A stretch of DNA of 64,000 nt from an uncultured Chloroflexia bacterium. Lineage in GTDB: Bacteria; Chloroflexota; Chloroflexia; QHBQ01; JADMIH01. Both the position numbers and the translations under genes were made by a program. Below, one piece after another: positions 33,827-64,000 of the stretch (the stretch's first letter is position 1; every line of letters begins with the position of its first letter). Where the stretch lies: contig CAWCNY010000001.1 of NCBI GenBank assembly GCA_963797095.1, positions 256,001 through 320,000 of the forward strand, in the 5' to 3' direction. The notes under the pieces are model-generated. The model had not been told where the DNA came from. It did not search any database and saw nothing but the letters and a program-made list of their open reading frames with translations.

Positions 33827-34984
33827 TCATTCAGTCCTCCCGCCAAGGTTCTCGGCCACCCAGTCGACGATGTAATCAAGGGCATTGGCGCTGTTATCGA
33901 CACTGCTGTGCTCGATACCGCCCTCGCGGGGGGTGAATATCTTCAACTCGCGCTTGGGGCTGTTGACTAGCTGGTCGTAGGTCTGATAAGCATATTCGAC
34001 AGGTATCTGGCGGTCGTTGTGCCCATGGGTGACGAGAAACGGCACCGTGATGCGGTCGAGAACCCCGTTTAGCGTCACTCGCTCCGCTATCCGCATGAAT
34101 TCGTCCATATCCTTCGCGCCCCAGACCCACATGACATGCTCCCAATAGTGCGGCACGGGGCGCTCGCCCGCGAGGGCGAGCCGGCGCTTCTGGACCTCGC
34201 CCCAGTTGTGGTTTGCGCCCCACACCGCGCCCAGCGCAAAGCGTGGCTCGAAGGCCACCGCGCGAGGGCAGAAGTAGCCGCCGAGGGAGACGCCATGCAA
34301 ACCGATGCGCTTGGGGTCCACATCATCGCGCGTTTCCAGGTAGTCCACCACCTTGCTCGCCCATAGCTCGGCGTTGTACACCGCCTTCATATTGTGCAGT
34401 CGCAGAGCCTCGCCGGTGCCCGGCTGGTCTACAATGAGGGAGGAGATGCCCCTCCTTGCGAGCTCACGAGGGCCACCCACTCGGTAGATCATCTCCTTCG
34501 TGCTGTCGAGGCCGTTGACCTGCACCAGGATAGGCGCAGGTCCACTGACACCTTCCGCGCGCACATACAGGCCCGCGATGTGGGCGTCTTGGTAGCGAAT
34601 CTCCATGCGCTCGCAATTCTCCCGAGCCAGCCGCACACCTTTCTGGAACGTTGCCTGGAACTTAGCATAGAGCGCTTTGCGCGGCTCGTAACCGTGAGCC
34701 TGCATCCGCTCGCCGATTAGGTAGTAGGTTGCTGCGCGCCCCAGCTTGTTCCCCGCGCTGAGCAGCCTCCCCCGCGCCTCATCTTCGTCTGCCAGGCCGG
34801 CGAGTTTGTCGCCCGTTGCCACCCAGGACTGCATGAACGCCTGCGTCCCGGGATCGTCCCCTTGCCTGGCGATTTCGAGGAGGGGACGGCACATTTGGTC
34901 GATCTCGCCGATTTTCGCCCCCATTTCCATCGCCAGGTTGATCGACAGGTTCCAGACGTAGTTGCCCTTGAAATATTCAAACAT
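33827..34984 (-). CDS. Alpha/beta hydrolase (2,6-dihydroxypseudooxynicotine hydrolase-like; possible C-C hydrolase)
   Basis: NGLDSTKE, VDQPGTGEA, nucleophile elbow GVSLGG, HGHNDRQI, GGIEH. Confidence 0.8.
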   Translation of the reverse strand: MFEYFKGNYVWNLSINLAMEMGAKIGEIDQMCRPLLEIARQGDDPGTQAFMQSWVATGDKLAGLADEDEARGRLLSAGNKLGRAATYYLIGERMQAHGYEPRKALYAKFQATFQKGVRLARENCERMEIRYQDAHIAGLYVRAEGVSGPAPILVQVNGLDSTKEMIYRVGGPRELARRGISSLIVDQPGTGEALRLHNMKAVYNAELWASKVVDYLETRDDVDPKRIGLHGVSLGGYFCPRAVAFEPRFALGAVWGANHNWGEVQKRRLALAGERPVPHYWEHVMWVWGAKDMDEFMRIAERVTLNGVLDRITVPFLVTHGHNDRQIPVEYAYQTYDQLVNSPKRELKIFTPREGGIEHSSVDNSANALDYIVDWVAENLGGRTE

Positions 34985-35060
34985 CAACACACCTCCCGGC
35001 ACGTGCCCGCAGGCGCTGCCTTACCGCCGTTTCTCCAGAGCGCTATCTGGTTGGAAGGTC

Positions 35061-36005
35061 TCAATTCGCCATGGCATTGCGAATGAGAAGCTCCACTGTG
35101 CCATCGTTGTGGAATCCAAGACTTTCTGCGGTGCGGGCATATAGTGGCGGGTAGTGGCCAAACGCCGATTCGAGCGTCTCGTTCGGCTCGTAACGGACGA
35201 GTTGGCGGCGATCCTCCCCGTAGCAGCGGGCAAGAGCCTCCACCAGCTCCTCAATTGAGAGGCGCAGCACCGGCAAGACCATTGTACGCGCCGATCTACG
35301 TGTCTCCGGCGTAAGTCTCGCCGCGTGCAGCAGATTGTCCACGCAGCATCCAACCGACATCCACCATGCGACGGCACGGGCCGATACCGGGCAGGTGTAC
35401 GGCTCACCCGCAGCCAGCTTCCAGAAGATATCGCTCATGAACGCGGACAAGAGGCCTGAGGGTTCCGGCGGCCGCGCGACTATGCCGGGTAGCCGCAGCG
35501 CGATCCCGTCGATCCAGCCTCGCCTGCTGTAGTCACTGACAAGTATCTCCCCGATCAACTTGTGCGCACCATACGACAGCGTAGGTTTGGGTAGCGTGGC
35601 GTCATTTACCGCCGAGGGGAGAGGCTCTCCGTAGACGGCGATGCTGCTGGCGAGAACCGTTGTCGGCCGGCTGCCGAGTGCCCGTAGCTGCTCCAGGAGT
35701 TGGAGGGTGGCGTCGAGATTGACTTTGAGACCGAGCTCGTACTGCTGCTCGGCCAGTCCTCCTGGGATGCTCGCCAAATGGAAGACAGTGTCTACTCCCC
35801 CGCCCAGTGCTCGCTGCAATATTCCCACATCTGCGATGCTGCCGGGATATTGCTCGACACGCCGGTCTGCAGCTTCGCCGTCAAAGCGCTGGTCAATCAG
35901 CACAAGGCGTTCGAGGGGCTCGCCCAGGCCTGTGCCATCCACGAGCAGACGGCGCACCAGGCGACGTCCGACAAAGCCGCTTGCTCCCGTAATCAGCACC
36001 TGCAT
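35061..36005 (-). CDS. NAD-dependent epimerase/dehydratase (extended SDR)
   Basis: LITGASGFVG, FHLAS, ASSIAVYG, SYGAHK, RLPGIVARP. Confidence 0.88.
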   Translation of the reverse strand: MQVLITGASGFVGRRLVRRLLVDGTGLGEPLERLVLIDQRFDGEAADRRVEQYPGSIADVGILQRALGGGVDTVFHLASIPGGLAEQQYELGLKVNLDATLQLLEQLRALGSRPTTVLASSIAVYGEPLPSAVNDATLPKPTLSYGAHKLIGEILVSDYSRRGWIDGIALRLPGIVARPPEPSGLLSAFMSDIFWKLAAGEPYTCPVSARAVAWWMSVGCCVDNLLHAARLTPETRRSARTMVLPVLRLSIEELVEALARCYGEDRRQLVRYEPNETLESAFGHYPPLYARTAESLGFHNDGTVELLIRNAMAN

Positions 36006-37006
36006 TACGCTTCACCTCGAGCTGGCACAGGTGCGCGCACCACCCGCTGGTCGATAGCGCCAAAGACGCTCCGGCCCTGGGCGTCGAGCACTTCCATGCG
36101 CACCATGTCGCCAAAGCGCATGAACCCGGTCGTCGGGGCACCATGATCGAGGATTTCGATTACGCGGCGCTCGGCGATGCATGCGCAGCCGGCGCTTCGG
36201 TCGGCGTTGGACACGGTGCCGGAGCCGACGATCGTTCCGGCTCGCAACCGGCGTGTCCTGGCGGCGTGCGCGATGAGATCGAAGAAGGTGAAGTGCATCT
36301 CGGCACCGCTCGGCCTGCCGAACTGCGCCCCGTTCAAGTAGACGTTCAGCGGCAGATGCACCCTTCCATTGCGCCACGCCCCGCCAAGCTCGTCTGGGGT
36401 GACGGCTACCGGCGCGAAGCTCGTCGCGGGCTTTGTCAGGAAGAAGCCGAAGCCGGTCTTCATCTCACGAGGGCCAAAAGCGCGCAGGCTCCAATCGTTA
36501 AGCAGCACGACCAACTTCAAGTGCTCTACAGCCTGCTCCGGCGTGCAGCCCATCGGTACATCATCGACGACGACCCCGTATTCGCCCTCGAAGTCGATGC
36601 TGTAAGTTTCGTCGGGCATTGGCACATCGTCGCACGGCCCAACGAAATCGTCTGAGCCGCCCTGGTAAATCAGAGGGATCGTCTCCGCGTCGGGTGGTGG
36701 TTCGAGATGGTAGGCTTGCTCCATCAGCAGGCCGTGGCTGAGAAAAGCCGAGCCGTCGCACCACTGGTACGCCCTCGGCAACGGCGGTGCCGCGGCCTGC
36801 GGCTCAAACGCAAACGTTTCGGGCGACCCACCCGCGTTTACTTCGTCGCACAACTGGCTTAATTGTGATGCCGTTTCGGCCCAGCCGTCGAGTGCCTGCT
36901 GGAGCGTCTTGGCCACCATGCTTGTCCTTGCAGCGCGGGATAGGTCGCGTGAGACCACGACAAGTGTGCCGTCGCGGCTGCCGTCTTTGAGAGTTGCAAG
37001 CCTCAT
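36005..37006 (-). CDS. Fumarylacetoacetate hydrolase family protein
   Basis: MRLATLKDGSRDGTLVVVSRDL, PLPRAYQWCDGSAF, YQGGSD, IDFEGE, LNDWSLR, GTIVGSGTVSN. Confidence 0.9.
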   Translation of the reverse strand: MRLATLKDGSRDGTLVVVSRDLSRAARTSMVAKTLQQALDGWAETASQLSQLCDEVNAGGSPETFAFEPQAAAPPLPRAYQWCDGSAFLSHGLLMEQAYHLEPPPDAETIPLIYQGGSDDFVGPCDDVPMPDETYSIDFEGEYGVVVDDVPMGCTPEQAVEHLKLVVLLNDWSLRAFGPREMKTGFGFFLTKPATSFAPVAVTPDELGGAWRNGRVHLPLNVYLNGAQFGRPSGAEMHFTFFDLIAHAARTRRLRAGTIVGSGTVSNADRSAGCACIAERRVIEILDHGAPTTGFMRFGDMVRMEVLDAQGRSVFGAIDQRVVRAPVPARGEA

Positions 37007-38061
37007 AATTGACCTCTTCCTGGCTCCGATCGCCAATGGATCATGGGCTGGCCCGCGACGGGGCTGCGAAAATAAGGGATCGTAGTGCCTCGCAAGCTGC
37101 CGAGGTAGACAGTCCGCAGGTTAGGTCCACCAAAGGTCACGCTCGCCATCCACGGGCAGAGCGTGCCGTGATTGGCGCCCATGATCTCGGGTGTGAGCGT
37201 GCCGGCCCGGAAGTGCTCTTCGTAGACGGCGTTCGCCTGCGGGTTGCTATCGTCTAGCAGCGTCAACACGTCGCCTTCGGGCGTGATCGCCACCAGCTTG
37301 TCGAGGAAGATCAGCGTTACCCACAGGTTGCCGTAGCTATCGAAGGCGAGTCCATCTGGGTGCCCTTCAAGCTCGCTGGGGCCATACACCTCGCGGTCGG
37401 TCAGGGAGCCATCCGGGTGGGCGCGCATCCGCGAGATGTGCCGGCCTGTGCTCTCCACGACGTACAGCCACTCCTCCTTGTCGTCAAAGCGAATCTCGTT
37501 GGTGCCGTTGAAGCCCTCAGCTACGATGCGGATGCCCAACTCATCGATCAGCCCGATGTAGCCATCGGGTGTCTTCGAGTTGACTTGCCTGGTCCACGGA
37601 ACCTCACGCGTGGTGACCGTGAACCAGATGCGATTCTTGGAGTCGCGTAGCGGAAAGTTAGCCTTGCCGAGCGGCTGCCCGTCGATCTCGGTGTACAAGG
37701 TGTATAACCGCCCCTCGCATGTCATTCTCTCGATCGCATCGGTGCCCCAGTTGGCGATGATGAAGTCGCCATTCTCGGCAAAGGCGAGGCCGTTCGGGAG
37801 CGATCCCTGCGCCTTCACGTATCGATCATTGAAGGCGGCAGTGCCGAGGGCCTTCTGTTCTATATAGGACGCGACCAGTTGCTGCTCACCGTCGGGCCTG
37901 ATCCTCATCACGCCCCCGCGCGCATCCGCTGCCCAGATCGTGCCGTCGGGCTCGGTGAGGATGCACTCCGGGCGCTGGAGGTCGTGGCCAATCGTGCGGA
38001 TCGACTCGCGATCCAACTGCCAGCCGTCGAGTGGATTGGGTGTGGAACGTGCCATAGTCAT
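37003..38061 (-). CDS. SMP-30/gluconolactonase-family beta-propeller
   Basis: LQRPECI, PNGLAF, TNEIRF, PDGLAFDSYGNLW, SVTFGGPNLRTVYLGSL. Confidence 0.85.
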   Translation of the reverse strand: MTMARSTPNPLDGWQLDRESIRTIGHDLQRPECILTEPDGTIWAADARGGVMRIRPDGEQQLVASYIEQKALGTAAFNDRYVKAQGSLPNGLAFAENGDFIIANWGTDAIERMTCEGRLYTLYTEIDGQPLGKANFPLRDSKNRIWFTVTTREVPWTRQVNSKTPDGYIGLIDELGIRIVAEGFNGTNEIRFDDKEEWLYVVESTGRHISRMRAHPDGSLTDREVYGPSELEGHPDGLAFDSYGNLWVTLIFLDKLVAITPEGDVLTLLDDSNPQANAVYEEHFRAGTLTPEIMGANHGTLCPWMASVTFGGPNLRTVYLGSLRGTTIPYFRSPVAGQPMIHWRSEPGRGQL

Positions 38062-38242: not shown

Positions 38243-39088
38243 TCAGTTCTTTTCATTTATTTGGTCAAGTGATCGGTCAAGCCTACCGGTGGGGTTGCGC
38301 CCCAGCAGAATATCCTCAGTCCGTTCGCGGATCTGCCAGTTCCGCTCCGGATGCGTCAGGATGTAGAACCGCTCCTCACGCACTGCCTCCAGCACGAGGT
38401 AGGCCACCGATTCGGGAGGCATGGCTGTTTCGAGCGCCTGCTGCAGACGTTGCGGAAGCGCAACGTCTCCGGGCTCTTCTCCGGATCGCGAGGCGCTGCT
38501 CAGAATGTCGGTCCTGACGACGCCCGGGAGCAACAGGGACACACCGATCTGAGGCGAGTGCTCGGCCAATTCGTGGTAGAGCGCCTCGGTGAAGCCCACA
38601 ACTGCGAACTTGGTCGTCCGGTATACACCTAGCCCCGGCGGAGAGATAACCCCAGCTATCGAGGCCGTGTTCACGATATGGCACGGCACCCCCTGTGCGC
38701 GCATGATGGGGGCGAATACCCGGACGCCATCTACGACGCCCCAGAGGTTGACGCCAAGCGCCCATTCCCAAACCGCGGCGGTGCTCTCCAGGATCTGGGT
38801 CATGATCCCAACGCCTGCGTTGTTACACAGTAGATGGACACCACCGAAGGCACTCACGGTCGCCTCGGCCAGCGAGTTTATGTCCTGGGCTTTTGACACG
38901 TCCGTTGGCACGGCCAGTACGTGTGCGCCTGATGCTTGCAGCTCGGATGCAGTCGCCTCCAGGGCAGATACCCTCAGATCAGCGAGCACGACGCGCATCC
39001 CTTCCTGGGCGAACCTGAACGCTAGGGCTTTGCCGATCCCGCTTGCCGCCCCCGTAACGACTGCAACTTTATCTCGAAACTCACGCAC
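38243..39088 (-). CDS. Short-chain dehydrogenase/reductase
   Basis: VTGAASGIG, LCNNAGV, VNTAS, YRTTK. Confidence 0.9.
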   Translation of the reverse strand: MREFRDKVAVVTGAASGIGKALAFRFAQEGMRVVLADLRVSALEATASELQASGAHVLAVPTDVSKAQDINSLAEATVSAFGGVHLLCNNAGVGIMTQILESTAAVWEWALGVNLWGVVDGVRVFAPIMRAQGVPCHIVNTASIAGVISPPGLGVYRTTKFAVVGFTEALYHELAEHSPQIGVSLLLPGVVRTDILSSASRSGEEPGDVALPQRLQQALETAMPPESVAYLVLEAVREERFYILTHPERNWQIRERTEDILLGRNPTGRLDRSLDQINEKN

Positions 39089-39320
39089 CAGGACGATCCC
39101 CTCGCGCTTGCTCCTCCAACCTGATTTTCAGGGCAATAACGAAAGCCGTGCCAGGTGCGCCGTATGCCGAATCGGATAAGTGGTTCTGGGTATATTTGCG
39201 AATAAGCTCCTCAGCATCTGCGTCTTGCAGCGCGAGCGGCGCATGAACATGCTTCACGTGGTGAAACTCTGCCTGAGTCATGCCCGGTCGCCGCCCTGTC
39301 GCGATGAGGAACTTGATCAT
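39081..39320 (-). CDS. EthD-like protein (short, possibly truncated)
   Basis: MIKFLIATGRRPGMTQAEFH..HAPL..KYTQNH. Confidence 0.55.
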   Translation of the reverse strand: MIKFLIATGRRPGMTQAEFHHVKHVHAPLALQDADAEELIRKYTQNHLSDSAYGAPGTAFVIALKIRLEEQARGDRPGA

Positions 39321-40111
39321 AGCTCCTCCTCGAACATGGCCACCACTCGGCTCCAGGCGGCGCCGGTGCCCCGCAGGTTGACGGGGAAGGCCATCACCGT
39401 GAAGCCGAAGGGGGCTGGGAGTTGATCAAGGTTCGCCAGCTTCTCGATCTGGCAATACTCCTTTTCGCGCCCCAGTATGTGCGACTCCCAGAACTGCGAT
39501 CTGCCCGCCTTAGCCTCCTCAGCCATCACGTCGTTGGGGCGGTCGAGACCCCAGGCGTCGATGCCGATCAGCTTCACGCCCCGGTCGATCAGCCATTCGG
39601 TGGCTGAGCGCCGCAGACCGGGGTGCATCAGCTCGTAACCCGGCTCTTTGAAGTGCTTGCTCGTATCGGTGCGCACCAGCACGATATCGTAGGGCTTGAG
39701 GGTGTAGCCGATGCGCTCAAGTTCCGCCTGCACGTCCTCGTCCGTGATCCCTTCTCCTCGCTTTTTGTGCGTCATGTTCAGGAGCACGCCATCACCGAAG
39801 CACCAGCGTATAGGCACCTTGTCGATCGTGCGCGTCTCGCCGAGTTTTGCCGGCCCGTAGTGGAGGGGCGCATCAATATGCGTGCCTGAGTGGGTGGTGA
39901 GGGTCACCGTTTCGGCGTTCCACACAGCGCCGTCAGGCCAGTACGTTTCATCGAGGCCCACCACCTGCTTGCTCTGGTTAAGGCCTCGCTCCTGGCTCAT
40001 ATACTCTATGTGGTGTTTGTTGAACTCGAACTCCGAGGTTTCGTTGCCCAGACAGTCGCTGAGATCTATCAGCGTGACCCTTTTGCCTCGGTACTCAAAC
40101 ACCTCTGCCAC
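39317..40111 (-). CDS. Cyclase family metal hydrolase (kynurenine formamidase-like)
   Basis: THSGTHIDAPLH, VLVRT, IGIDAWGLD, IEKLANLDQLP. Confidence 0.9.
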   Translation of the reverse strand: MAEVFEYRGKRVTLIDLSDCLGNETSEFEFNKHHIEYMSQERGLNQSKQVVGLDETYWPDGAVWNAETVTLTTHSGTHIDAPLHYGPAKLGETRTIDKVPIRWCFGDGVLLNMTHKKRGEGITDEDVQAELERIGYTLKPYDIVLVRTDTSKHFKEPGYELMHPGLRRSATEWLIDRGVKLIGIDAWGLDRPNDVMAEEAKAGRSQFWESHILGREKEYCQIEKLANLDQLPAPFGFTVMAFPVNLRGTGAAWSRVVAMFEEEL

Positions 40112-40165: not shown

Positions 40166-41305
40166 CTATGCGGGCTGCGCTGCTAACTCGAATGACCTGC
40201 GTGTCGCCCCCTCGACGTCGGCATTGGGGCTGTGCTCTCGCTCCCAGCTGGCTATGAGCAACGAAATATCCACGAACTCCTTGCAGCGCTCGAAACGGCG
40301 GTTGCTGTAGTGCTCAAGCGCCTGGGCCAGGTCGTCACTCTTTGCCAGCTCGTCGCCGAGCACCACTGCGTCTTCCATCACCATAGCGGCACCCTGGGCT
40401 ATATGTGCCGTCATAGCATGCGCCGAGTCTCCCACAAGCACCACTCGGCCGCGGTGCCACGGAGCGGGCACCAGGATCGACTCGAAGGGGCGGTAAACCA
40501 CGTGGGAGGAATCGGTGATCTGGTCCTGGATGTCGATCGCAGGGCCAGGTGGGTAGGGTGCAAGCAGAGCCCGCATCCGACTGGCAAGCTCGCTTTCCGG
40601 CACGCGCAGCTCCGCGCCGGGGGCTGGTGTCTCTACCAGGAATATGTACATAAGATCAGGGCTGAGAGGGACAAAACCGACGCGAGGATCGAGGCCCATG
40701 AACATCCAGATGTCCTTGATTTCCTTGGGCTTGGGGAGGTTATAGCGCCAGACCATCTGCCCCTCGAAGTGCGGCTGCAACTCCTCCCCCTCACCGAACA
40801 CCAGCCGCCGCACAAGGGAGCGCAAGCCGTCGGCGCCAACGAGCAGGTCGTACTCTCCTGTTGTGCCGTCGGTGAAAGAGACGTGGACGCGGTCGGGCGT
40901 CTGCTCCAGGCTCCGCACAGTGACACCGACCTGGACCGGGACGCCCTCAGCGTGAACAGCGTCCTGAAGGATAGAGTGCAGGCGAGGGCGTGCGATGGCG
41001 TTGGTGGCAGGGAATTGCGGCCCTGCGAGCTTCGGCTGGGGGATGCGTGCGATCAAGTGCCCATCAGGCGTGTGTAGCTCAAGCGCGTCCATGCCGTAGC
41101 CTTCGGCCACGACACGCTCGGCGAGGCCCAGGGCAGCTAGAGCGCGCAGGGCGTTCGCCTGCTGAATGATCCCGACCCCGTAGACGTCCCACCTGGGGTT
41201 CACCTCTACTATTTCACACTCAATATCTGCTTTGCACAGCGCGACGGCGGTGCAAAGCCCCCCGATCCCCCCGCCGACAATCAGAACCCTCTGCACTGAA
41301 GCCAT
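40166..41305 (-). CDS. FAD-dependent monooxygenase (group A aromatic hydroxylase)
   Basis: IVGGGIGG, LLVGADGLRS, RVVLVGDSAH..AQGAAMVMEDA. Confidence 0.9.
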   Translation of the reverse strand: MASVQRVLIVGGGIGGLCTAVALCKADIECEIVEVNPRWDVYGVGIIQQANALRALAALGLAERVVAEGYGMDALELHTPDGHLIARIPQPKLAGPQFPATNAIARPRLHSILQDAVHAEGVPVQVGVTVRSLEQTPDRVHVSFTDGTTGEYDLLVGADGLRSLVRRLVFGEGEELQPHFEGQMVWRYNLPKPKEIKDIWMFMGLDPRVGFVPLSPDLMYIFLVETPAPGAELRVPESELASRMRALLAPYPPGPAIDIQDQITDSSHVVYRPFESILVPAPWHRGRVVLVGDSAHAMTAHIAQGAAMVMEDAVVLGDELAKSDDLAQALEHYSNRRFERCKEFVDISLLIASWEREHSPNADVEGATRRSFELAAQPA

Positions 41306-41308: not shown

Positions 41309-42355
41309 CTACTCCTTTGTTGTCTCGCGTGTCGTCTCGCGTGTTGTCCTGTGCCCTTCGCCCATGATGCTGGCGGACATTGCCAGCTCAGGCTCGCCGA
41401 TCACAGGGCCCGCTGCGGGCGGGAAGGCCTCGAGCATCGAAGGGGGCATCTCGATGTTGCGATACATGGAGTTGGGCCCTTCCGTGCCTTGCCAGTCGAC
41501 CGGCTCCCAGTCGGGCACGTAGTTGCGGTACCCCAGACTGTTCAGCTCGATGCGCAAACCCCCAGGCTCGCGGAAGTAGAGGTACATCTGCTCGCCGATG
41601 CCGTGCCGCCCGGGTCCGAACTCGATAGGCGTGCCCGCCTCCACGAGAAGGTCGGCGGCGCGAAGCAGGTCCTCCGACTCCTCCATCCAGAAAGCCAGGT
41701 GGTGAAAGCGAGCTGGTACGCCCGAGAAGTCGCCCGCTATGCCTAAGTCGTGCGAGGTCTCGTTGGTGGTTGTAACTGCGAAGACAGCTCTCTGGGGGTC
41801 CGGATCGAAAGGGATGTAGGCCATGACACGGAAACCGAGGACGTCTCGGTTCCACGCCGCCGTGCCACGCACGTCGTTGGCCGCCACTGTAAGGTGATCG
41901 AGTTGACGAGGTGCGATGCCGCGGGCTATGCGCTTTTGCGGGCGGTCGGGGTAGCTCGACCGCTGCTCTGGCGATGCTTTGTAGCGCTCTACTTCCCAGA
42001 ACACCTCCATCGAGTGCCCGTCGTGGCCCCGGAAGCGGTAGGAGCGCCCATGCCCGACCGACCGCTCGATCCACTCTCCTCTGGTGCCGCTGGCCTCGAT
42101 GCCGGCCACCGCTTCCTCCAGCTCCTCCGGGCCGAGGGTGCGCCAGGCACCATGGCCGAGAGCGGGCTGGTCGCCCTGGGTGAGAATCAAGCTGTGCTGA
42201 TAGTAATCGCCCCAGCAGCGCAAGTAAACAGACTGACCTTCCCTGTGGACCTCGTCCAGCCCGACGACATCTTTGAAAAAGGCGACCGATTGCTCGAGCC
42301 TGGGCGTGATAAGCTCCACGTGTGCTATGTGAGCGAGCAAGTGCTTTCGTCCCAT
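41309..42355 (-). CDS. Extradiol ring-cleavage dioxygenase (VOC, catechol 2,3-dioxygenase-like)
   Basis: HIAHVEL, VYLRCWGD, LDHLT, SHDLG, HHLAF, GPGRHGIGEQMYLYFREPGGLRIEL. Confidence 0.9.
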   Translation of the reverse strand: MGRKHLLAHIAHVELITPRLEQSVAFFKDVVGLDEVHREGQSVYLRCWGDYYQHSLILTQGDQPALGHGAWRTLGPEELEEAVAGIEASGTRGEWIERSVGHGRSYRFRGHDGHSMEVFWEVERYKASPEQRSSYPDRPQKRIARGIAPRQLDHLTVAANDVRGTAAWNRDVLGFRVMAYIPFDPDPQRAVFAVTTTNETSHDLGIAGDFSGVPARFHHLAFWMEESEDLLRAADLLVEAGTPIEFGPGRHGIGEQMYLYFREPGGLRIELNSLGYRNYVPDWEPVDWQGTEGPNSMYRNIEMPPSMLEAFPPAAGPVIGEPELAMSASIMGEGHRTTRETTRETTKE

Positions 42356-55967: not shown

Positions 55968-56375
55968 TCAGGCCGCTACATTCTCGTAGACCATTTTCTT
56001 CTGGCAGACGCCATACTCAACAAAGTCGTGAGAGTCCAGATATGGGATACGCACCTGCGCCATCAACCTCACGTCATGCTCTCCTTGAGAGAGAGGCTCG
56101 TCAAGGTGAAGCTCAATGGTCTTGGTATCGAGGACAAACCATTGCTCATCTATAAGCTCATGGAGCTGATCCAGGGTGTAGACGTATCCATCGGCCTGAA
56201 GTCTTAGTGACGTCCTGGGTATGTCCTTGCCATCGATCCTGAACTTCAGATCAGCTACTGCGGATAGCGGAAGCGAGCGATACCAGGGTAATCGCATCCT
56301 TACACATACAATCTTGTCGTCTTTGCTGTTCTTGGGGAACAAGTCATCGCCTCCAAGCATAAGCTCGTCATGCAT
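55968..56375 (-). CDS. C-glycoside deglycosidase beta subunit 4
   Basis: MRLPWYRSLPLSAV..IDG..WFVLD..GEHDV..RIPY; GGAGG RBS. Confidence 0.82.
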   Translation of the reverse strand: MHDELMLGGDDLFPKNSKDDKIVCVRMRLPWYRSLPLSAVADLKFRIDGKDIPRTSLRLQADGYVYTLDQLHELIDEQWFVLDTKTIELHLDEPLSQGEHDVRLMAQVRIPYLDSHDFVEYGVCQKKMVYENVAA

Positions 56376-56410
56376 GGGAGCACCTCCTTTTGTAGTTTGC
56401 TGCTCCAGTC

Positions 56411-56454
56411 TTCCCACATTTCTACCGGTTGGAATTACGGTAGAAATGTGGGAA
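56411..56454. other. Perfect 17-bp inverted repeat in a structured intergenic region
   Basis: TTCCCACATTTCTACCG-N10-CGGTAGAAATGTGGGAA. Confidence 0.8.
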
Positions 56455-56542: not shown

Positions 56543-57694
56543 CTATACCGTAGCCAGCTCCTCGCCCATGTGAATCACATCGCCGGACGCCGCGGATCTA
56601 TAGATGGCTTCCAGGATGAGCGTAACGGCATAGGCTTGCTCAGGCTTGACCACCAACTCGGCGCCATTGCGCACGGCGTTGAGCCAAGCCTCCTGCTCCT
56701 TGAACATACCAGGGAAGTCTTCCTTCGCGTCCGGGCCGCCGATGAAGGAGGCGCCCAGCGTGTAATTCTGGATGTACAGTTGCCCGTCGTTTTCGCCGTT
56801 GACCCTCACCTGGTAGCTGGGAGCCGACTGGAAATCGGCTGTGCGTACGACCGGTCCCGTGGGTGGGAACATATCTGCTCCGGCCCTGGTGCCACAAAGC
56901 ATAGTCATTGCCTCGTTGGCGACAATCATATTGATAGCCCAGGAAGCTTCAAGCACGATTGTAGCGCCGTTCTTCATCCTTACCAGTCCGAAAGCGCTAT
57001 CCTCGACCTCATAGTTGTCGGGATCCCACGGGCCCATGCCATTGGCCGGGCTGCCGATCTTGCCGATCTTGTCGAAAGTCGAGCCGAGCACGGTGTCAGG
57101 CTCGTAGTTGTTCATCATCCAGAGGGTGAGGTCCAGCGCGTGAGTGCCCAGGTCAATAAGGGGGCCTCCGCCCTGCTTCTCTTTGTCCATGAACACGCCC
57201 CACGTCGGCACGCCTCGACGCCTGGTAGCGAACGCCTTGCCCAGGTAGATATCGCCAAGCTCGCCGTTGTCGGCCATCTTCTTCATAAGGAGCGAGTCCT
57301 CGCGGAAGCGGTTCTGGTAGCCGATTGTGAGGAGCCTGCCGGTCTCTCTGTACGCGTCGAGCATCGCTTTGGCATCGGCAGCGGTCTTGGCCATCGGCTT
57401 CTCGCACAGGACGTGCTTGCCGGCCCTCAGGGCAGCGACCGTGATTTCGGCGTGCGAGATATTGGGCGTGCAGACGTGTACCACGTCAATGTCGTCGCGA
57501 GCTATCAAATCGTGGTAGTTCTCATAGACGGCGGCATCGGGGGTGCCGTATTGCTTGGCGCATGCCTCGGCCTTCTCCACTATGATGTCGCAAAAAGCCA
57601 CCATCTCAGCATCGTCGCGGCGCGCGAGGGAGGGCATATGCTTGCGAGTGGCGATAAAGCCGCAGCCCACGATACCCACTCTTGTCTTTTTCAC
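56543..57694 (-). CDS. Gfo/Idh/MocA oxidoreductase, DgpA-like (close paralog of 47246-48397)
   Basis: VGIVGCGFIATRKH, RRRGVPTWGVFMDKEKQGGGPLIDLGTHALD; shared PVVRTADF..VRVNGE..LYIQNY segment. Confidence 0.88.
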   Translation of the reverse strand: MKKTRVGIVGCGFIATRKHMPSLARRDDAEMVAFCDIIVEKAEACAKQYGTPDAAVYENYHDLIARDDIDVVHVCTPNISHAEITVAALRAGKHVLCEKPMAKTAADAKAMLDAYRETGRLLTIGYQNRFREDSLLMKKMADNGELGDIYLGKAFATRRRGVPTWGVFMDKEKQGGGPLIDLGTHALDLTLWMMNNYEPDTVLGSTFDKIGKIGSPANGMGPWDPDNYEVEDSAFGLVRMKNGATIVLEASWAINMIVANEAMTMLCGTRAGADMFPPTGPVVRTADFQSAPSYQVRVNGENDGQLYIQNYTLGASFIGGPDAKEDFPGMFKEQEAWLNAVRNGAELVVKPEQAYAVTLILEAIYRSAASGDVIHMGEELATV

Positions 57695-57809: not shown

Positions 57810-58805
57810 CTAGCCGGCCAGCGCCATACCATAGGCGGCAGCGCCGAGTAAGCCCACTTTCGGGTTCAAAATGACGCGTACGGGCACGTTGCTCAGCATT
57901 TCGCGGAATCGCCCCTTGCTGTGCATTGCCTCCAAAAACGCGGGCTTCTGCAGTTGCTCCACTATACGCGGAGACATGCCTCCGCTCAGGTAAAGCCCGC
58001 CCGTGGCCAGCACCTTGAGCGCCAGGTTGCCTGCTTCCCCTCCCAGGATAGCCACGAATAGGTCGATGACCGCACAGGCCAGGTCACACTGCTTCGTCGG
58101 GTCCTGCGCTGCCGCCAGAATAACGGGTGTGGGGTCGGCGGCAGCGGCCAACTGCTCCGCCAGCCAGTCAGGCTCCGGGTACCCAATCGATTTCAGGTAG
58201 CTGTACAGGTTTGGAATACCCAGTCCACCCGAGCAGACGCGCTCGACGCTCACGTGATCGAAGCCCTTTTTGTTCATATACTGCAGCAGGCCTATTTGCA
58301 GTTCGCCGACAGGCCCGAACGATACATGACTCCCCTCGCAGCCATAAGGGTGGTAGCGCCCTTCAGCCCAAGTTAGGAACCCTTCGCCAAGGCCGGTGCC
58401 CGGCGCCAGCACACCGATATTGCCTTCGGGGAGCGCCGTGCCTTCGTTGAGTGTAAATATATCCTCCGGCTGCAGGCTCGGGATAGCATTCGCTATTCCC
58501 TGCATGTCGTTCAGCACTGCCACGGCCTTCCAGTCGAATGTCGACTTGATTGTCGGTCCGTCGATTACCCAGGTCAGGTTTGTGATTTTCGCCCGCTGAG
58601 CGAGCACCGGCCCGGCTACCGCGAAGCATGCCGTATCAACGGGCATCTCTACGGTGGCCAGAAACTCGCGGATCATATACTCGAGGCTGGTATACCGCCC
58701 GCTCGGAAAACTGATTTCGGCCAAGGGCTGGCTCAACCCGGCATCGCTGGAGTAGACCGCCAGGATGGTCTTTGTACCGCCGATGTCACCTGCAAGTACA
58801 TTCAT
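57810..58805 (-). CDS. glk: Glucokinase
   Basis: LAGDIGGTKT, AVAGPV, TNL.W, LND, PGTGLGE, EGSH, ERVCSG, GGLYLSGG. Confidence 0.92.
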   Translation of the reverse strand: MNVLAGDIGGTKTILAVYSSDAGLSQPLAEISFPSGRYTSLEYMIREFLATVEMPVDTACFAVAGPVLAQRAKITNLTWVIDGPTIKSTFDWKAVAVLNDMQGIANAIPSLQPEDIFTLNEGTALPEGNIGVLAPGTGLGEGFLTWAEGRYHPYGCEGSHVSFGPVGELQIGLLQYMNKKGFDHVSVERVCSGGLGIPNLYSYLKSIGYPEPDWLAEQLAAAADPTPVILAAAQDPTKQCDLACAVIDLFVAILGGEAGNLALKVLATGGLYLSGGMSPRIVEQLQKPAFLEAMHSKGRFREMLSNVPVRVILNPKVGLLGAAAYGMALAG

Positions 58806-58807
58806 GG

Positions 58808-59770
58808 CTAGGCCCACCACATGGCTGCCGGCTGCTCGATCAGCAGCACGTCCTTGAGGAAGCTCACCGCCCGCTGGAACCCCTCGTCCACCGACGCCAT
58901 AGCGTCCTCGTGTTCTATGGAAAGCACGCCGTCGTAGCCCACAAGCCGAAGGGTGCTCACGAGAGTGCGCCAGGTTAGCTGGTCGTGGCCGTAGCCGACG
59001 GTACGGAAGGTCCACGAGCGGTGCAACAGGTCGCTGTACGGCTTGGTATCGAGCACCCCGTTGACGGCCACGTTGAGCTTGTCCACGAAGGTATCCTTGG
59101 CGTGCACGTGGTGGATTGCCCCGCCCAGGGCGCGTATCGAAGCTTCCGGTTCGATGCCCTGCCAGAATAGATGGCTCGGGTCGTAGTTGGCCCCCACGAC
59201 CGGCCCGACAGCTTCGCGCAGCCGCAAGAGCGTCTCCGGGTTGTAGACGATGAAGCCCGGGTGCATTTCAAACGCCAGCTTCACCCCGTTATCGGCGGCG
59301 AACTTGCCTGCTTCCCGCCAGTAAGGGATCGCCTTTTCCTCCCACTGCCATTTGAGCAGCTCCTCAAATTCCGGAGGCCACGCGCAGGTTACCCAGTTAG
59401 GGTATTTGCCTCTGTCCGAATCGCCGGGACAGCCGGAGAATAGGTTGATCACCCCCACGCCCAGTTCCGTCGCGAGGTGTACAGTGTCGCGGTAAACGCT
59501 GTCGTACTGCCTAGCTGTATCGGGGTCGGGGTGCAGAGGGTTGCCGTGACACGAAAGAGCGCTTATCACCAGCCCGCGCGCTTCGACGGCCTTGCGCAGT
59601 GCGGCAGCCGCCTGCTTATTCTTGAGCAGCTCGGCGGGGTTGGCGTGGGTATTGCCAGGCCAGGCGCCGGTGCCGAACTCAACGGCCTGCAGGCCCATCG
59701 AGGCCACATTGTCCAGCACCTCCTCCAGCGGGCGATCCTGGAAAAGCACAGTAAGAACTCCAAGCTTCAT
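58808..59770 (-). CDS. Sugar phosphate isomerase/epimerase (YcjR/IolE-like TIM barrel; candidate 3-keto-sugar hydratase or epimerase)
   Basis: SCHGNPLHP, FEMHPG, NYDPSHLFWQG, HVHAKD, LSIEHED. Confidence 0.85.
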   Translation of the reverse strand: MKLGVLTVLFQDRPLEEVLDNVASMGLQAVEFGTGAWPGNTHANPAELLKNKQAAAALRKAVEARGLVISALSCHGNPLHPDPDTARQYDSVYRDTVHLATELGVGVINLFSGCPGDSDRGKYPNWVTCAWPPEFEELLKWQWEEKAIPYWREAGKFAADNGVKLAFEMHPGFIVYNPETLLRLREAVGPVVGANYDPSHLFWQGIEPEASIRALGGAIHHVHAKDTFVDKLNVAVNGVLDTKPYSDLLHRSWTFRTVGYGHDQLTWRTLVSTLRLVGYDGVLSIEHEDAMASVDEGFQRAVSFLKDVLLIEQPAAMWWA

Positions 59771-59953: not shown

Positions 59954-61183
59954 CTAAAGCGAATCAGATACGTCGGACACCGCTATCCACCGCTCCTCAC
60001 GGGCGCTGCGCAGGATAACTTCTGCCACCAGCCGCTCACGATGCCCGTCCTCAAAAGTTGGGAAAGTGGGCGCGGCCGCAACGTCGCCCCTGTCCAGGTA
60101 GCCATAGAAGTCCCGGCAAAGGCTTCCCAAAGGGTCAGGTGAGACATTGAAGGCACCCGAGGGGTAGCCGCCACTTGCAGCGTCACCTGCAGGGTCGCCG
60201 AAGTCGGAGCCCTCTTCCTCCGACGCGTTGGGTCGATCCTTGTGCAGCATCTGGTTGGGTCGATCCTTGTGCAGCATCTGGTTGGGTCGGTCCCAGTGCC
60301 CTATCCATAGCTCATGCGGCTCGTCAGCGCTCCATGCGATGGCCTCGCGCCAGCCGTCGATCTCATACGTAGTTCTGTTCTTGCGTCCGGCGCTGACCCG
60401 GCAGACAGTCAGGACGCTTCGCGCCCCATCTGAATACCTAAGAAAGACGCCCGCATAATCGTCGGTTCTGGCCTCAAGGCCATGCAGCTTCTCATCATCC
60501 TGAACTTGTGCCGGCGATCCCTCGCTGGGAGCACCGCTCCGTCGGGCGGGCTTGCGAGCCACCGACCAGAAGGCGCCCATATCGGCCATAACGGCCTCCA
60601 CTTCCAGCCCCGTGATATATGAGATCAGGTCGATCCGGTGGCCGCCCACGTCCAATGCAGAGGGGATCTCGTCCGCCGGCATCGGCGCCAGGCGCCAATC
60701 CTGCAAGCATGAACCTCGCACGACGTACACGTCTCCAAGCTCCTGGCTCCTAGCCAGCACGTCCACGTGCTGGCTAGGAGGGTAGTACCGCAGGTTGAAC
60801 ACCGTCGCGTTTGCCACCCGCTTTTGCGCCGCGAGCCGGGCCAGCTGATAGGACTCCCTCGGATTCATCGCCAGCGGAGTTTCGCAGGCTACATGTTTAC
60901 GAGCTTCCAGGGAGGCTCTGACCTGCGAGAAGTGCAGATCAGCTGGCGTGGTGATATGCACGACGTCGACCTCAGGGTCGACCAGTAGTTCCTCGGCCGA
61001 GTTGTATAGCCGAGCCATTCTGAATTGCCGGGCTACCTGCTTAGTCTCGTGCGGGTCACTGCCTGCAAGAGCCACGATGCTGTTCCCCAGGCCACTCAGA
61101 GTCTCAAGGTGCGACATGGCAATCGAGTCTGTGCCGATCACACCACGACGCCATTTTGTTCCGACCATCGTCACTCCCTTCAC
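59954..61183 (-). CDS. Degenerate Gfo/Idh/MocA paralog of 53596-54750
   Basis: Same layout but GVIGTDSI (Rossmann glycines lost), CETP instead of CEKP, internal deletion, 27-bp duplication at 60227-60289. Confidence 0.7.
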   Translation of the reverse strand: MKGVTMVGTKWRRGVIGTDSIAMSHLETLSGLGNSIVALAGSDPHETKQVARQFRMARLYNSAEELLVDPEVDVVHITTPADLHFSQVRASLEARKHVACETPLAMNPRESYQLARLAAQKRVANATVFNLRYYPPSQHVDVLARSQELGDVYVVRGSCLQDWRLAPMPADEIPSALDVGGHRIDLISYITGLEVEAVMADMGAFWSVARKPARRSGAPSEGSPAQVQDDEKLHGLEARTDDYAGVFLRYSDGARSVLTVCRVSAGRKNRTTYEIDGWREAIAWSADEPHELWIGHWDRPNQMLHKDRPNQMLHKDRPNASEEEGSDFGDPAGDAASGGYPSGAFNVSPDPLGSLCRDFYGYLDRGDVAAAPTFPTFEDGHRERLVAEVILRSAREERWIAVSDVSDSL

Positions 61184-61282: not shown

Positions 61283-61687
61283 TCAACTCGCCAGGGTAAG
61301 TTGCTTGCTGTCCTGACCGAAGAAACCTTTCCCGCCGAAAGAGAGGATGTAGGAGATCACCATGTGCTGCCGCAGCTCCACCGTGTGCTCGCCCGGCGCC
61401 AGGCCGCCCGGTTTGTCCACGGTCAGGATGCCGACATCTCCAAACTCCCACTTCTCTTCCGTTTCGTTCTTGATTTCGCTCAAGCGGAAGTTGTGGCCGT
61501 TGATGGTAAGCGTTATCTGCTCGGGAGCGAAGCGCTCGCCGTCGACGGTGAGATCCGTATCGCCCAGCAGCGACAGCACGACGCCGCGATAATAGGGCAG
61601 GCGTATACCGATCTGGAAACCGGTCACCTTGCCCTCCTGCTCGACGTTGCGGAATACCTCACCCACGATCAAATACTTGTCAAACAT
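61283..61687 (-). CDS. C-glycoside deglycosidase beta subunit 5
   Basis: MFDKYLI..FRNV..GFQIGIRLPYYRGVVLS..VDGE..KWEFG..KPGGLAPGEH..ISYI. Confidence 0.87.
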   Translation of the reverse strand: MFDKYLIVGEVFRNVEQEGKVTGFQIGIRLPYYRGVVLSLLGDTDLTVDGERFAPEQITLTINGHNFRLSEIKNETEEKWEFGDVGILTVDKPGGLAPGEHTVELRQHMVISYILSFGGKGFFGQDSKQLTLAS

Positions 61688-61730: not shown

Positions 61731-62720
61731 CTATTCCTCGCCCAGTAGCCGCTTGAACATCTCCTGCTCGCGGCGTACCTGCTCCACGCTGTCCACCTCG
61801 TATACATCCTGTATATGGCGGTTGCCCTCGTACTCGCTGGACAGGTAGCCGCCGTAGCCCGCCTCCACAAGAACCGGGATGACGTCCTCGTAGGGGATGC
61901 TGTACTCGGTGTAGTCGGGCAGCATCTCGTAGAACTTGGCGTGGATATGGAAGATGAAGTCCTTTATCTTCAGCAGATCGCGCGGGTTTGAGTAGATGTA
62001 GTGGCCCGCCATACTCGCCAGGGCCACGTCTTGCTCGTTGCCGCCCATCGCTTTGACCTTGTCGACCAGGTCGTCCAGCGGTTCGTGGCTGTAGTAGCGC
62101 TCTACTATATACCCGACTATAGTCTCCTGGGCGCCGTCGCGCACGTAGCGCTCGGTAATTACTCGAGGGAAGCGCTTGACGAAGATGCCCATGTCGGGGA
62201 TAAACCCGAGGAACTTCGTGCCCGTGCGCTCTATAGTCTCGATGTGGGCCTTGATGCGCTCGTGGTCCACACTGAACGGCGAGTGGATCTCGACGCCCAT
62301 CTTCACGCCTATCTCCTCGGCGTATGGTATCGCCTTCTCCGCAATCTCAGGCGGTGTGTTTGCTATGACTCGGATTACCGGGCAGCCGAGCTTCTTCGCG
62401 AACTGCAGGTCGCGCACCACCGAGCGCAGCATTTCGTCCTCGTCCAGCAGGCGGCCCTGGTAGCGGTTGCGGTCAAGGAACATGTCGTGGCAGGTGGGCG
62501 TTGTGCCGTACCTCTCCATCCATTCGTGCCAGTTGTCGAAGAAGGCCCCGCCCGGGTTGGGGAAGCCGGGGGCCATCTGCTCGCCGATGATCTCTATGCC
62601 CTTTGCGCCCATCCTGGCAGCGGCGGCTATGCAATCTTCCAGGCTCATCTTGCGCAGGAAGTACTCTTCCTGGAAGCTGTACAGGCTCACTCCGCGTCTA
62701 ATGCCGGTCGTGTTGGTCAT
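61731..62720 (-). CDS. C-glycoside deglycosidase alpha subunit 5
   Basis: RGVSLYSFQEEY, GVEIHSP, IPDMGIF, HIHAKFYEM, EYSIPY, SSEYEGNR. Confidence 0.87.
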   Translation of the reverse strand: MTNTTGIRRGVSLYSFQEEYFLRKMSLEDCIAAAARMGAKGIEIIGEQMAPGFPNPGGAFFDNWHEWMERYGTTPTCHDMFLDRNRYQGRLLDEDEMLRSVVRDLQFAKKLGCPVIRVIANTPPEIAEKAIPYAEEIGVKMGVEIHSPFSVDHERIKAHIETIERTGTKFLGFIPDMGIFVKRFPRVITERYVRDGAQETIVGYIVERYYSHEPLDDLVDKVKAMGGNEQDVALASMAGHYIYSNPRDLLKIKDFIFHIHAKFYEMLPDYTEYSIPYEDVIPVLVEAGYGGYLSSEYEGNRHIQDVYEVDSVEQVRREQEMFKRLLGEE

Positions 62721-62784: not shown

Positions 62785-63714
62785 CTACTCGGACCGGGCC
62801 AGTATGCTATCGATATCTTTCAGTTCCTCGGGCGTCAGGGTCCAACCGGCGGCCGCGACGTTGGCCCGTACTTGCTCAGGCTTCGTCGCACCGGCGAAAA
62901 CCGAGGCCACGACCGGGCGCGCGAGCAGCCATGAGACCGCGAGATCGAGCAGCGACCGGTCGTGAGCTTGCGCGAAGCTTATGAGGTCTTCGACCAGCGC
63001 CAGGTTGCGCTCCGTGAGGACCTGTGAGGCCCGGTCGCCAGGATCAGCGATGCGCGTCCCCTGCGGTACAGGTTTGCCGGCGCGAAACTTACCTGTGAGC
63101 AGCCCGTTAGCGAGGGGTGTATAAGGCAAGAAGGCCAGCCCTTGCCTTTCGCACTCAGGCAGGAGTTCCTGCTCCGCGTCGCGGCGCAGCATGTTGTACT
63201 GGTTCTGGACGCTGACAAAGTGCACGCCCTGGCCCTGGGCGGCATCCTCCGCCGCGCGCAACTGCTCCTCCGTGAAGTTTGAGCAGCCTATCTCGCGCAC
63301 CTTGCCCGCCCGCACCAGATCGGCGAGCGCGCCCAGCGTCTCCTCAAGCGGGGTCCTGGGGTCAGGCTGGTGAAACTGGTAGAGGTCGATCCGGTCGGTG
63401 CCGAGCCGGCGCAGGCTGCCTTCCACCGCCTGCTGTATGTAGGCCGGGCTGCCGCCGCTCTCCGGCCCCGACGTGTGATGCCCGAACTTGGTGGCCACGG
63501 CCACCTCATTGCGGCGGCTGCCCAGCGCCCGGCCGAGGTACTCCTCGCTCTTGCCGGCGCCGTACATTTCGGCTGTGTCGAAGAAGGTCACACCGGCATC
63601 AAGCGCGGCGTTGACGACAACCGCCGTGCCCTCGGCATCGAGCCGACGGCCGAAATTGTTGCACCCCAGGCCCACCACCGATACCTGGAGCGATCCTAGC
63701 TTGCGAGTTTCCAT
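62785..63714 (-). CDS. Aldo/keto reductase
   Basis: VGLGCNNFG, FFDTAEMYG, ATKFG, SLRRLGTDRIDLYQFH, GCSNF, PLANGLLTGK. Confidence 0.92.
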   Translation of the reverse strand: METRKLGSLQVSVVGLGCNNFGRRLDAEGTAVVVNAALDAGVTFFDTAEMYGAGKSEEYLGRALGSRRNEVAVATKFGHHTSGPESGGSPAYIQQAVEGSLRRLGTDRIDLYQFHQPDPRTPLEETLGALADLVRAGKVREIGCSNFTEEQLRAAEDAAQGQGVHFVSVQNQYNMLRRDAEQELLPECERQGLAFLPYTPLANGLLTGKFRAGKPVPQGTRIADPGDRASQVLTERNLALVEDLISFAQAHDRSLLDLAVSWLLARPVVASVFAGATKPEQVRANVAAAGWTLTPEELKDIDSILARSE

Positions 63715-63755
63715 AAGGCCGGTATTCCTTTTATGCACTTGCGCCTCGCCATGGC

Positions 63756-64000
63756 CTAGGCGGCTACTTTGAGCACCTTCGTATCGCGTCCCGCGAAGGT
63801 CTGCTGCCAGTAGCCGATCCGCAGGTAGGGTGCGAGCGACAGTGTGTGCTCGCCCGGCTTGAGGCCGCCCGGCTGATCTATCGTCACGATGCCCACCTCG
63901 CCGAACTCCCACCGGTCGTTTTCCTCTGTGAGAAACTGGTCGAGAGTGTACGTGTTGCCGTGGAGAGTCACGCGGATCCGGTCACGCGGTATGCTCTCAC
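63756..64000 (-). CDS. C-glycoside deglycosidase beta subunit 6 (partial at window edge)
   Basis: RWEFGEVG..QPGGLKPGEHTL..LRIGY, clear paralog of beta 3 and beta 5. Confidence 0.8.
   Translation of the reverse strand, partial: ESIPRDRIRVTLHGNTYTLDQFLTEENDRWEFGEVGIVTIDQPGGLKPGEHTLSLAPYLRIGYWQQTFAGRDTKVLKVAA

Follow-up and report, generated by a model that had tools for sequence, protein, structure and literature searches.

A 14-pair C-glycoside deglycosidase array and an fde-like aromatic operon in a probably co-regulated island of a Chloroflexia genome

The closest described systems to the locus presented here are the dgp cluster of the gut strain PUE, which encodes the oxidoreductase DgpA and the C-glycoside deglycosidase (CGD) DgpBC/PuCGD, and the dfg cluster of Eubacterium cellulosolvens (PMC8563793, PMC10628242). 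In their characterised form, these systems have one CGD pair and an anaerobic host. A route of oxidation, elimination, hydration and reduction has been described for PUE, Agrobacterium and Bacillus smithii (Bitter et al., PMC10628242), and the CGD residues that bind Mn and catalyse cleavage were defined by Mori et al. (PMC8563793). Several CGD pairs are found in the CarA/G3Ox-CGD clusters of soil actinobacteria (PMC10646112, PMC8563793), with two pairs next to G3Ox in P. siccitolerans (PMC10646112), and the highest printed count that we met is six dgpBC clusters in the gut anaerobe Catenibacillus decagia, which has 11 DgpA homologues and a proposed broader substrate range (PMC11170127). Sugar oxidation has been stated to be divided between an NAD oxidoreductase in gut bacteria and an FAD oxidase in soil bacteria (PMC10646112). 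For the aglycone, the relevant systems are fde of Herbaspirillum seropedicae and ifc of Variovorax V35 (PMC11069340, PMC11303751), the fde genes being fdeB (hydrolase), fdeC (glyoxalase), fdeD (2Fe-2S), fdeE (FAD hydroxylase), fdeF (MFS), fdeG (cyclase), fdeH (cupin), fdeI (FAH) and fdeJ (epimerase) (PMC11069340, Fig. S5 text). We analyzed a stretch of 64,000 nucleotides (the window; positions 256,001 to 320,000 of contig C1, CAWCNY010000001.1, assembly GCA_963797095.1) from an uncultured Chloroflexia bacterium. It contains part of an island of about 63 kb in which an array of CGD genes adjoins a putative ring-cleavage operon. Judged from the sequence, the island likely encodes a co-regulated pathway in which plant polyphenol glycosides first lose their sugar, after which the ring of the aglycone is opened.

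The island resembles dgp and dfg in its DgpA-type NAD oxidoreductase, in alpha/beta CGDs with the same metal-binding and catalytic residues, and in the sugar route that these genes would serve. It differs in having 14 CGD pairs, three DgpA genes and a glucokinase, and in that its promoter motif is shared by an operon for O2-dependent ring cleavage. A whole-genome search with the PF19906 profile identified 14 CGD-beta genes, all within C1:300265-334679 (window 44265 to 78679), and an alpha profile identified 14 CGD alpha genes, in 15 open reading frame (ORF) pieces, in the same stretch; neither profile had a match elsewhere in the genome. The alpha and beta genes together occupy C1:299150-334940, that is, 14 pairs within 36 kb. 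Every alpha adjoins a beta, the partner assignment being ambiguous for alpha11-13 and beta6a/6b. Within the window, alpha1 (43150..44181), beta1 (44181..44594), alpha2 (44611..45603), beta2 (45603..46037), alpha4 (54954..55953), beta4 (55968..56417), beta5 (61283..61684), alpha5 (61731..62720) and beta6a (63756..64000, cut by the window end) are on the minus strand, and beta3 (50996..51397) and alpha3 (51439..52398, with a short lid region) are on the plus strand. Alpha1 and alpha2 were recognised by profile matches and active-site residues, and beta1 to beta5 by PF19906. The preliminary description had given the island as 33827..64000 and had missed its main oddity, the 14-pair array. Its genes are real, but the array does not stop at position 64000: the following C1:320001-353000 contains 8 further beta and 9 further alpha genes and the third DgpA.

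The assignment of these genes to the CGDs is supported by the active-site residues. Residues E144, H146, D176, H260, K262, E296 and E298 are conserved in every one of the 13 intact alphas and correspond to the metal ligands E147/D179/H269/K271/E305 and the catalytic H149/E307 of AgCGD2. Alpha5 matches PDB 8QVC (E 5e-120) and is 57% identical to the CGD alpha of Deinococcus aetherius. Alpha4 is frameshifted by one extra base near 55230, so that the seven residues are present but divided over two frames. At 55229, one base is missing from a single low-depth contig of the soil-metagenome run X1. A frameshift likewise splits recA (C6:978910-979873), which indicates that the assembly contains indel errors; the break in alpha4 is therefore plausibly an assembly error. 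Identities among the paralogues are 23-69% for the alphas and 20-68% for the betas, which rules out a misassembled or collapsed repeat. A quick tree built from 147 alpha rows, with alpha4 left out and with long branches, placed the 13 own alphas in four deep clades, interleaved with metagenomic sequences. The array thus looks like an accumulation of old lineages with added duplications, and a recent burst from a single gene was rejected in view of these clades and the divergent alpha4. By analogy with the characterised CGDs, the paralogues likely divide among themselves the C6 and C8 positions, different scaffolds and perhaps O-glycosides. The highest copy number found elsewhere was 5-6, and 80 metagenomic loci, most of them on short contigs, had at most 3 pairs. 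C. decagia is likewise expanded, but it lives anaerobically in the gut, cleaves the aglycone reductively (FLR, Fcr, Phy) and has fewer CGDs (PMC11170127), as compared to 14 pairs in one 36-kb array here.

The first step of the sugar arm was predicted in the preliminary description to be a Gfo/NAD-type oxidation, and homology points the same way. The search of Gfo2 (47246..48397, minus strand, as are all genes given with window coordinates in this paragraph) against the PDB gave DgpA1 (9M3D) at E 5.8e-121 and DgpA (7XR9) at E 9.5e-119, with the next non-DgpA match at 4e-31. Three island genes belong to the DgpA clade: Gfo2 itself, Gfo4 (56543..57694; 74% identical to Gfo2) and Gfo6, the latter two with 66-74% identity to Gfo2. 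A tblastn search with the GMC C-glycoside oxidase of D. aetherius gave no match in this 93%-complete genome, and the GMC_oxred_C profile had one partial match, on contig C4. Among 30 CGD-positive genomes used for comparison, none gave a DgpA orthologue apart from one partial match at 39%. Further oxidoreductases are Gfo1 (46128..47249), a candidate 3-keto-sugar oxidoreductase with 66-75% identity to the gene at the same position in metagenomic DgpA-CGD modules, Gfo3 (53596..54852; nearest solved relative 6A3F), Gfo5 (59954..61183; 46% to Gfo3) and an aldo-keto reductase (AKR; 62785..63714). The glucokinase (57810..58805) scored above the TIGR00749 cut-off. The TIM-barrel protein (58808..59770), a candidate 3-keto-glycal hydratase, had an uncharacterised protein as its sole PDB match and is 77% identical to its counterpart in metagenomic locus L129, which has the same DgpA-hydratase-glucokinase module. 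From the gene context, it may be a DgpD-like hydratase. The module of DgpA, glucokinase, second Gfo and two CGD pairs recurs at 60-77% identity in loci L120, L124 and L129, and that of L129 also contains the TIM-barrel gene. The conserved gene order DgpA-(hydratase)-(glucokinase)-Gfo-beta-alpha-alpha-beta was observed in L120, L124, L129 and L162, with no monooxygenase within the fetched flanks.

The aromatic operon follows CGD pairs 1-2 in the downstream direction, as the preliminary description states, and shares their strand; it runs on the minus strand from 42355 to 33827 with gaps of -8 to 181 bp. Eight of the families listed in the preliminary description were confirmed by profile matches, whereas the ninth, EthD, is present only as a truncated remnant of 79 aa (39081..39320; E 4.7e-5). 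The first gene (41309..42355) encodes a VOC extradiol dioxygenase of a catechol-2,3-dioxygenase (C23O)-like lineage, with 272 bits to TIGR03211 (below the cut-off of 320) and C23O matches in the PDB. It is the single copy in the genome and is 60% identical to its D. aetherius homologue, within a range of 56-68% to the VOCs of Deinococcus, Thermogemmatispora and a few other loci. The FdeE-like group A flavin monooxygenase (40166..41305) is a member of PRK06847 (469.5 bits; NCBIfam cut-off 372) with GxGxxG, DG and GD motifs and a mass of 41.4 kDa, as compared to 41.1 kDa for purified FdeE. It is followed by an FdeG-like cyclase (39317..40111; HxGTHxD motif), a short-chain dehydrogenase (SDR; 38243..39088; Pfam adh_short; 303 bits to PRK06194, slightly below cut-off) and an SMP-30/lactonase family protein (37003..38061; Pfam SGL; 70% to D. 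aetherius, 72-74% to Meiothermus and Thermogemmatispora loci). The last genes encode an FdeI-like FAH-family hydrolase (36005..37006; Pfam FAA_hydrolase; 54-64% to Pseudomonas-locus homologues), an FdeJ-like NAD-dependent epimerase/dehydratase (35061..36005; Pfam Epimerase; 49-58% to deinococcal and Pseudomonas-locus homologues) and an FdeB-like alpha/beta hydrolase (33827..34984), a predicted C-C or ester hydrolase (Pfam S9/FrsA; best PDB match 2,6-dihydroxy-pseudo-oxynicotine hydrolase, E 6e-17; 77% to D. aetherius).

For the comparison with fde, the Pseudomonas locus L056 (hydrolase, LysR, VOC-Rieske-FMO), chosen by gene order, served as a proxy in place of the H. seropedicae Fde proteins. 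Identities to this locus were 41% for the monooxygenase (the flavin monooxygenase, FMO, in the C-D-E order), 68% for the hydrolase, 60% for the FAH protein and 50% for the epimerase. Across Pseudomonas fde-type loci, the FdeB, FdeG, FdeI and FdeJ families were 40-72% identical and the monooxygenase 41-47%. The island thus shares with fde and ifc the FAD monooxygenase, VOC dioxygenase, alpha/beta hydrolase, cyclase, FAH and epimerase families (PMC11069340, PMC11303751). It differs from them by the added lactonase and SDR, by its junction with deglycosylation and by the lack of FdeA, LysR and the FdeD Rieske protein. A candidate for the role of FdeH is a monocupin (50141..50527, plus strand). 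The cupin that the preliminary description had placed nearby does exist, but a distance of 7.8 kb separates it from the operon, and it is encoded on the other strand amid CGD genes. Its sole close relative among the compared loci (68%) is located between two CGD alpha genes, its PDB matches were diffuse and its single-sequence fold (pLDDT 37) was unusable; it is probably not FdeH. The D. aetherius cupin gave no guidance, its matches on contig C3 being regulator-type genes. The term complete mineralisation island does not hold, since the lower pathway is on another contig and the island is not self-contained: pobA-pcaH-pcaG-pcaB-pcaD, all above NCBIfam cut-offs, are on contig C8.

The two halves of the island are connected by a promoter motif, a box CCC-R-K-S-TTTTT located 27 nt before TAT(A/G)CT. 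A position weight matrix (PWM) was trained on four sites (cupin, CGD pair 3, main CGD operon and ABC transporter; the first two are duplicates), with the VOC promoter left out. The VOC promoter scored 26.85 as compared to 26.97-31.29 for the training sites, in a test that is only partly held out because the motif columns were picked with all five sites in view. In the genome-wide scan, only six sites scored within 4 bits of the VOC promoter, all of them in C1:298606-352955; the two non-training sites are the VOC promoter itself and the promoter of a DLH-MFS operon at the far end of the island. The predicted box and -10 element (TATACT) that head the aromatic operon are at 42563..42606 on the minus strand, and those of the cupin and of CGD pair 3 are at 49997..50040 and 50867..50910 on the plus strand. 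The latter two lie in duplicate intergenic blocks (49752-50078 and 50679-50948; 81-84% identical), which give the cupin and CGD pair 3 the same promoter. The gap of 794 bp between CGD alpha1 and the VOC gene contains a tandem repeat and this promoter-like site, and the aromatic operon is therefore probably a transcription unit apart from CGD pairs 1-2. The 33-bp repeat (42677-42803; 3.8 copies, 98%) is located between alpha1 and the aromatic-operon promoter. A terminator-like hairpin at 42622-42604 was left out of account, since it overlaps the promoter box and terminator-like sites did not outnumber those in shuffles (12 as compared to 11.2). The DgpA-Gfo-CGD2-CGD1 operon is headed by a perfect sigma70-type promoter, one of two divergent promoters overlain by a palindrome with 18-bp arms (48507..48565), a candidate LacI operator next to a LacI-family regulator gene (48559..49743, plus strand). 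A copy of the palindrome core with one mismatch is located in the promoter of a second LacI gene, and 2 of 5 genome-wide matches are within the island. On this sequence evidence, the LacI protein is likely a repressor of the DgpA operon, and a MalT/LuxR protein encoded past the window is likely the activator at the shared box.

The pairing of CGDs with ring cleavage recurs in other bacteria. A plasmid search (23 records for CGD-beta and 26 for the monooxygenase) showed the two genes about 10 kb apart or less in D. aetherius, Novosphingobium P6W and Sphingobium TomTYG65. Of 251 genomes in the family of Sphingomonas Root710, 18 had CGD-beta (maximum 3 matches), as did 5 of the 301 genomes searched in the class of Saccharopolyspora rosea (maximum 5) and 5 of 151 Deinococcota (1 each). 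Among the 23 CGD-positive sphingomonad and actinomycete genomes, 19 had a PRK06847 match (E<=1e-60), located within 25 kb of the CGD gene in 9 (about 0.7 expected) and within 50 kb in 11. All five CGD-positive Deinococcota carry a single run of CGD alpha, beta, GMC, VOC, cyclase, FAH, hydrolase and FMO genes, one of them being the D. aetherius plasmid already counted. In this plasmid cluster (L013), the CGD alpha is nearly identical to the Deinococcus CGD of PDB 8QVC and is followed by VOC, cyclase, FAH, hydrolase, FMO, SMP-30, SDR and epimerase genes, six of which are 43-77% identical to those of the island. It differs from the island in its single CGD pair, its gene order, a GMC FAD oxidase instead of DgpA, and an FAH and SDR that are not orthologous. 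The actinobacterial genomes G944, G970, G1069 and G1189 have up to 5 pairs with a monooxygenase about 10-18 kb away; actinobacterial clusters carry GMC oxidases, as do the deinococcal ones, often have fused subunits, and no DgpA orthologue was found in them. The predicted co-location of CGDs with an fde-like operon was thus observed in three other phyla, with one to five CGD pairs, and this genome is not alone in having the coupling. Distinctive of the island are the 14-pair array and the junction of DgpA with O2-dependent ring cleavage in a Chloroflexia host; every enzyme family is already known.

Subunits fused in one ORF were observed in the actinomycete clusters L104-L107 of G1084, L095-L103 and L108 and in G037, and G1084 has two near-identical CGD-GMC-VOC-FMO clusters. 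In the Sphingobium TomTYG65 region, a gene annotated as chalcone synthase (L015:42009-43076) is about 16 kb from the monooxygenase.

These data suggest the following pathway. Glycosides would be taken up by the family-5 ABC and MFS transporters encoded past the window, and the DgpA orthologues, by homology, would oxidise the sugar at C3 with NAD. The CGD pairs, with their conserved active sites, would release the aglycone and a 2-hydroxy-3-keto-glycal by Mn-dependent beta-elimination. As in the PUE and Agrobacterium pathways, the glycal may then be hydrated, reduced and phosphorylated to glucose-6-P by the TIM-barrel protein, the Gfo/AKR enzymes and the glucokinase. On the model of fde and ifc, the PRK06847 monooxygenase would use O2 to hydroxylate the freed resorcinol or phloroglucinol ring in the ortho position, and the VOC dioxygenase would perform meta-cleavage, after which the lactonase, cyclase, FAH, epimerase and hydrolase would trim the product. 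Any B-ring acid would be finished off-island by pobA-pca. Flavones as substrates, the reaction order, the regulator targets and growth on the aglycones are likewise predictions. The proposed coupling of NAD-dependent deglycosylation to O2-dependent ring cleavage is supported by the shared promoter motif, the co-location elsewhere and the heme-copper oxidase genes of the genome.

Several observations weigh against this reading, in addition to the partly held-out motif test. In the remaining 14 of the 23 genomes, the monooxygenase is not within 25 kb: in two it is at 40 kb and in one at 70 kb, two others have the genes far apart, five carry them on different contigs, and four gave no match at E 1e-60. 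In favour of the coupling, PRK06847 was found in 15 of 18 CGD-positive as compared to 2 of 19 CGD-negative sphingomonad genomes (the CGD-negative control sets gave 2/19 and 3/19), but only 30 candidates per genome were scored in the controls, as compared to 49, and related genomes do not count as independent here. The converse is rare, with a CGD within the fetched flanks of 1 of 79 monooxygenase loci; since most PRK06847 loci have no CGD nearby, the operon works without deglycosylation too. The remaining such points concern the operon and the substrates. The VOC protein is just 27% identical over 154 aa to the gene in fdeC position of the proxy L056, none of the 8 Rieske matches in the genome is on contig C1, and the EthD remnant covers profile positions 1-39 of 96. 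Because of the dioxygenase lineage and the missing FdeD, strict fde membership fails, and the resemblance claimed in the preliminary description holds for the FdeB/G/I/J families, the PRK06847 monooxygenase being a candidate FdeE type. By analogy, the operon is probably fde-like in its working (ortho-hydroxylation followed by meta-cleavage).

The same divergence raises the question of whether the coupling is real while the main aglycones are xanthones, chromones, dihydrochalcones, anthraquinones or small acyl-resorcinols freed by the CGDs, rather than flavones. The VOC lineage is that of Deinococcus, Thermogemmatispora and actinomycetes (43-68%) and not that of Pseudomonas and Novosphingobium (22-32%), there is no clear FdeH besides the missing FdeD, and the SMP-30 lactonase and F420 enzymes are additional. 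Characterised CGDs accept mangiferin and carminic acid (PMC8563793), and IfcA and FdeE, which share 36% identity, do not have the same scope (PMC11069340). Nevertheless, we regard non-flavone substrates as unlikely to be the main ones, given the 40-72% identities of the hydrolase, FAH, epimerase and cyclase to fde-order Pseudomonas loci and the reported activity of FdeE, which hydroxylates C8 (PMC11303751), on flavanones, flavones, isoflavones and flavonols.

The C-glycoside specificity of the array is not assured either, since PuCGE cleaves 3-keto O-glycosides as well as C-glycosides (PMC10628242). The array could chiefly harvest sugar from varied O-glycosides, which are more abundant and diverse, by 3-keto elimination, with the aromatic operon chiefly detoxifying phenolics. 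The sugar salvage genes inside the main operon and the off-island lower aromatic pathway would fit such a function. It is doubtful, and somewhat less probable than a shift in aglycone, considering that all 14 betas (the aglycone-binding subunits) are kept, that the genome has GH3 and GH1-like glycosidases and that the downstream pobA-pca route is present. That the operon and the array are chance neighbours, or that the array is a decaying or misassembled accumulation, is very improbable, for although the frameshifted alpha4, the truncated EthD, the gap with its terminator-like hairpin, the assembly indels and the lack of an island-spanning contig in runs X1-X4 would be compatible with it, the shared promoter box, the recurrence in three other phyla, the diverged paralogues, the closely matching pieces of both halves in soil runs and the ratio of 46 synonymous to 18 non-synonymous among the listed single-letter differences in island genes argue against it.

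Returning to the co-regulated route of sugar removal and ring opening, its significance lies in part in the number of paralogues. The characterised CGDs are few, slow and position-specific, and 14 co-regulated paralogues fed by the same oxidoreductases constitute a natural panel for C6/C8, scaffold and O- versus C-specificity, as well as a source of biocatalysts. The link between CGDs and fde-like genes, which also extends to the near-identical 8QVC orthologue in D. aetherius, predicts the fate of the aglycone in aerobes after C-deglycosylation. The locus breaks the simple split of gut NAD and soil FAD systems (PMC10646112), and Chloroflexia join the candidate degraders of soil polyphenols. 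A bolder interpretation, which we put forward tentatively, is that this is the largest known CGD battery, with 14 pairs of at least five deep lineages, fed by DgpA and each tuned to its own position, sugar or scaffold, in which one activator also switches on the ring-cleavage operon. It would represent a so far unrecognised cross-phylum "deglycosylate-then-meta-cleave" supercluster for recalcitrant soil C-glycosides, and several paralogues might cut substrates beyond those of known CGDs. In the literature covered, which leaves out most subscription papers, including the D. aerius CGD study, we found no account of CGD clusters joined to an fde-like operon or of CGDs in Chloroflexota, so that both are provisionally taken as unreported.

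The taxonomic placement of the contig was in line with the RpsB protein of the genome, whose relatives at 73-87% identity are labelled Chloroflexia or Chloroflexota. Short pieces of both the aromatic and the CGD halves were found at 95-100% identity in four soil-metagenome runs from two studies, one of which may be the source sample, and no contig in these runs (X1-X4) spans the whole island. The host is likely a soil-dwelling member of the Chloroflexia. Among congeners, CGD-beta above cut-off was found in none of 24, the VOC gene in none of 25 and the monooxygenase in none of 12. In wider sets, CGD-beta scored above cut-off in 1 of 40 relatives, in 1 of 300 genomes of the class and in 1 of 400 of the phylum. 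Many of these genomes are incomplete. These counts disfavour vertical inheritance within the genus. A foreign-GC signature was also rejected, GC and GC3 being in line with those of the flanks. PFOR, DHODH-like and glutamate dehydrogenase genes (18116-24642, minus strand) and an acetate kinase gene (230-1468) were observed elsewhere in the window; they suggest a facultative lifestyle, which would suit NAD-dependent, O2-independent deglycosylation.

Other genes of the island include an LLM oxidoreductase (52478..53431, minus strand), predicted to be F420-dependent from a TIGR03621 score above cut-off and the presence of cofD in the genome. Past the window are the MalT/LuxR-type regulator, the second LacI, the family-5 ABC transporter, and MFS, LLM, PNPOx and DLH (dienelactone-hydrolase-family) genes. 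In total, three LLM and one PNPOx-like oxidoreductases, probably F420-dependent, are in or beside the regulon (window 52478-53431; L002:10863-12609, 16085-17041), and these enzymes possibly serve in reductive activation of aglycones. To the left of the operon, a P-type (Mg-like) ATPase is encoded in two ORFs (31109-33646, plus strand) with a stop at 32431, either an assembly error or a pseudogene being possible. One contig of run X1 diverges just past the hydrolase stop (window 33824), which hints at the left border of the island and at a different flank in a related strain. Further left, a second MalT-like ATPase/TPR regulator (6836-9223) and two IS4/5-type transposase genes (4399-5820 and 12326-12898) were observed.

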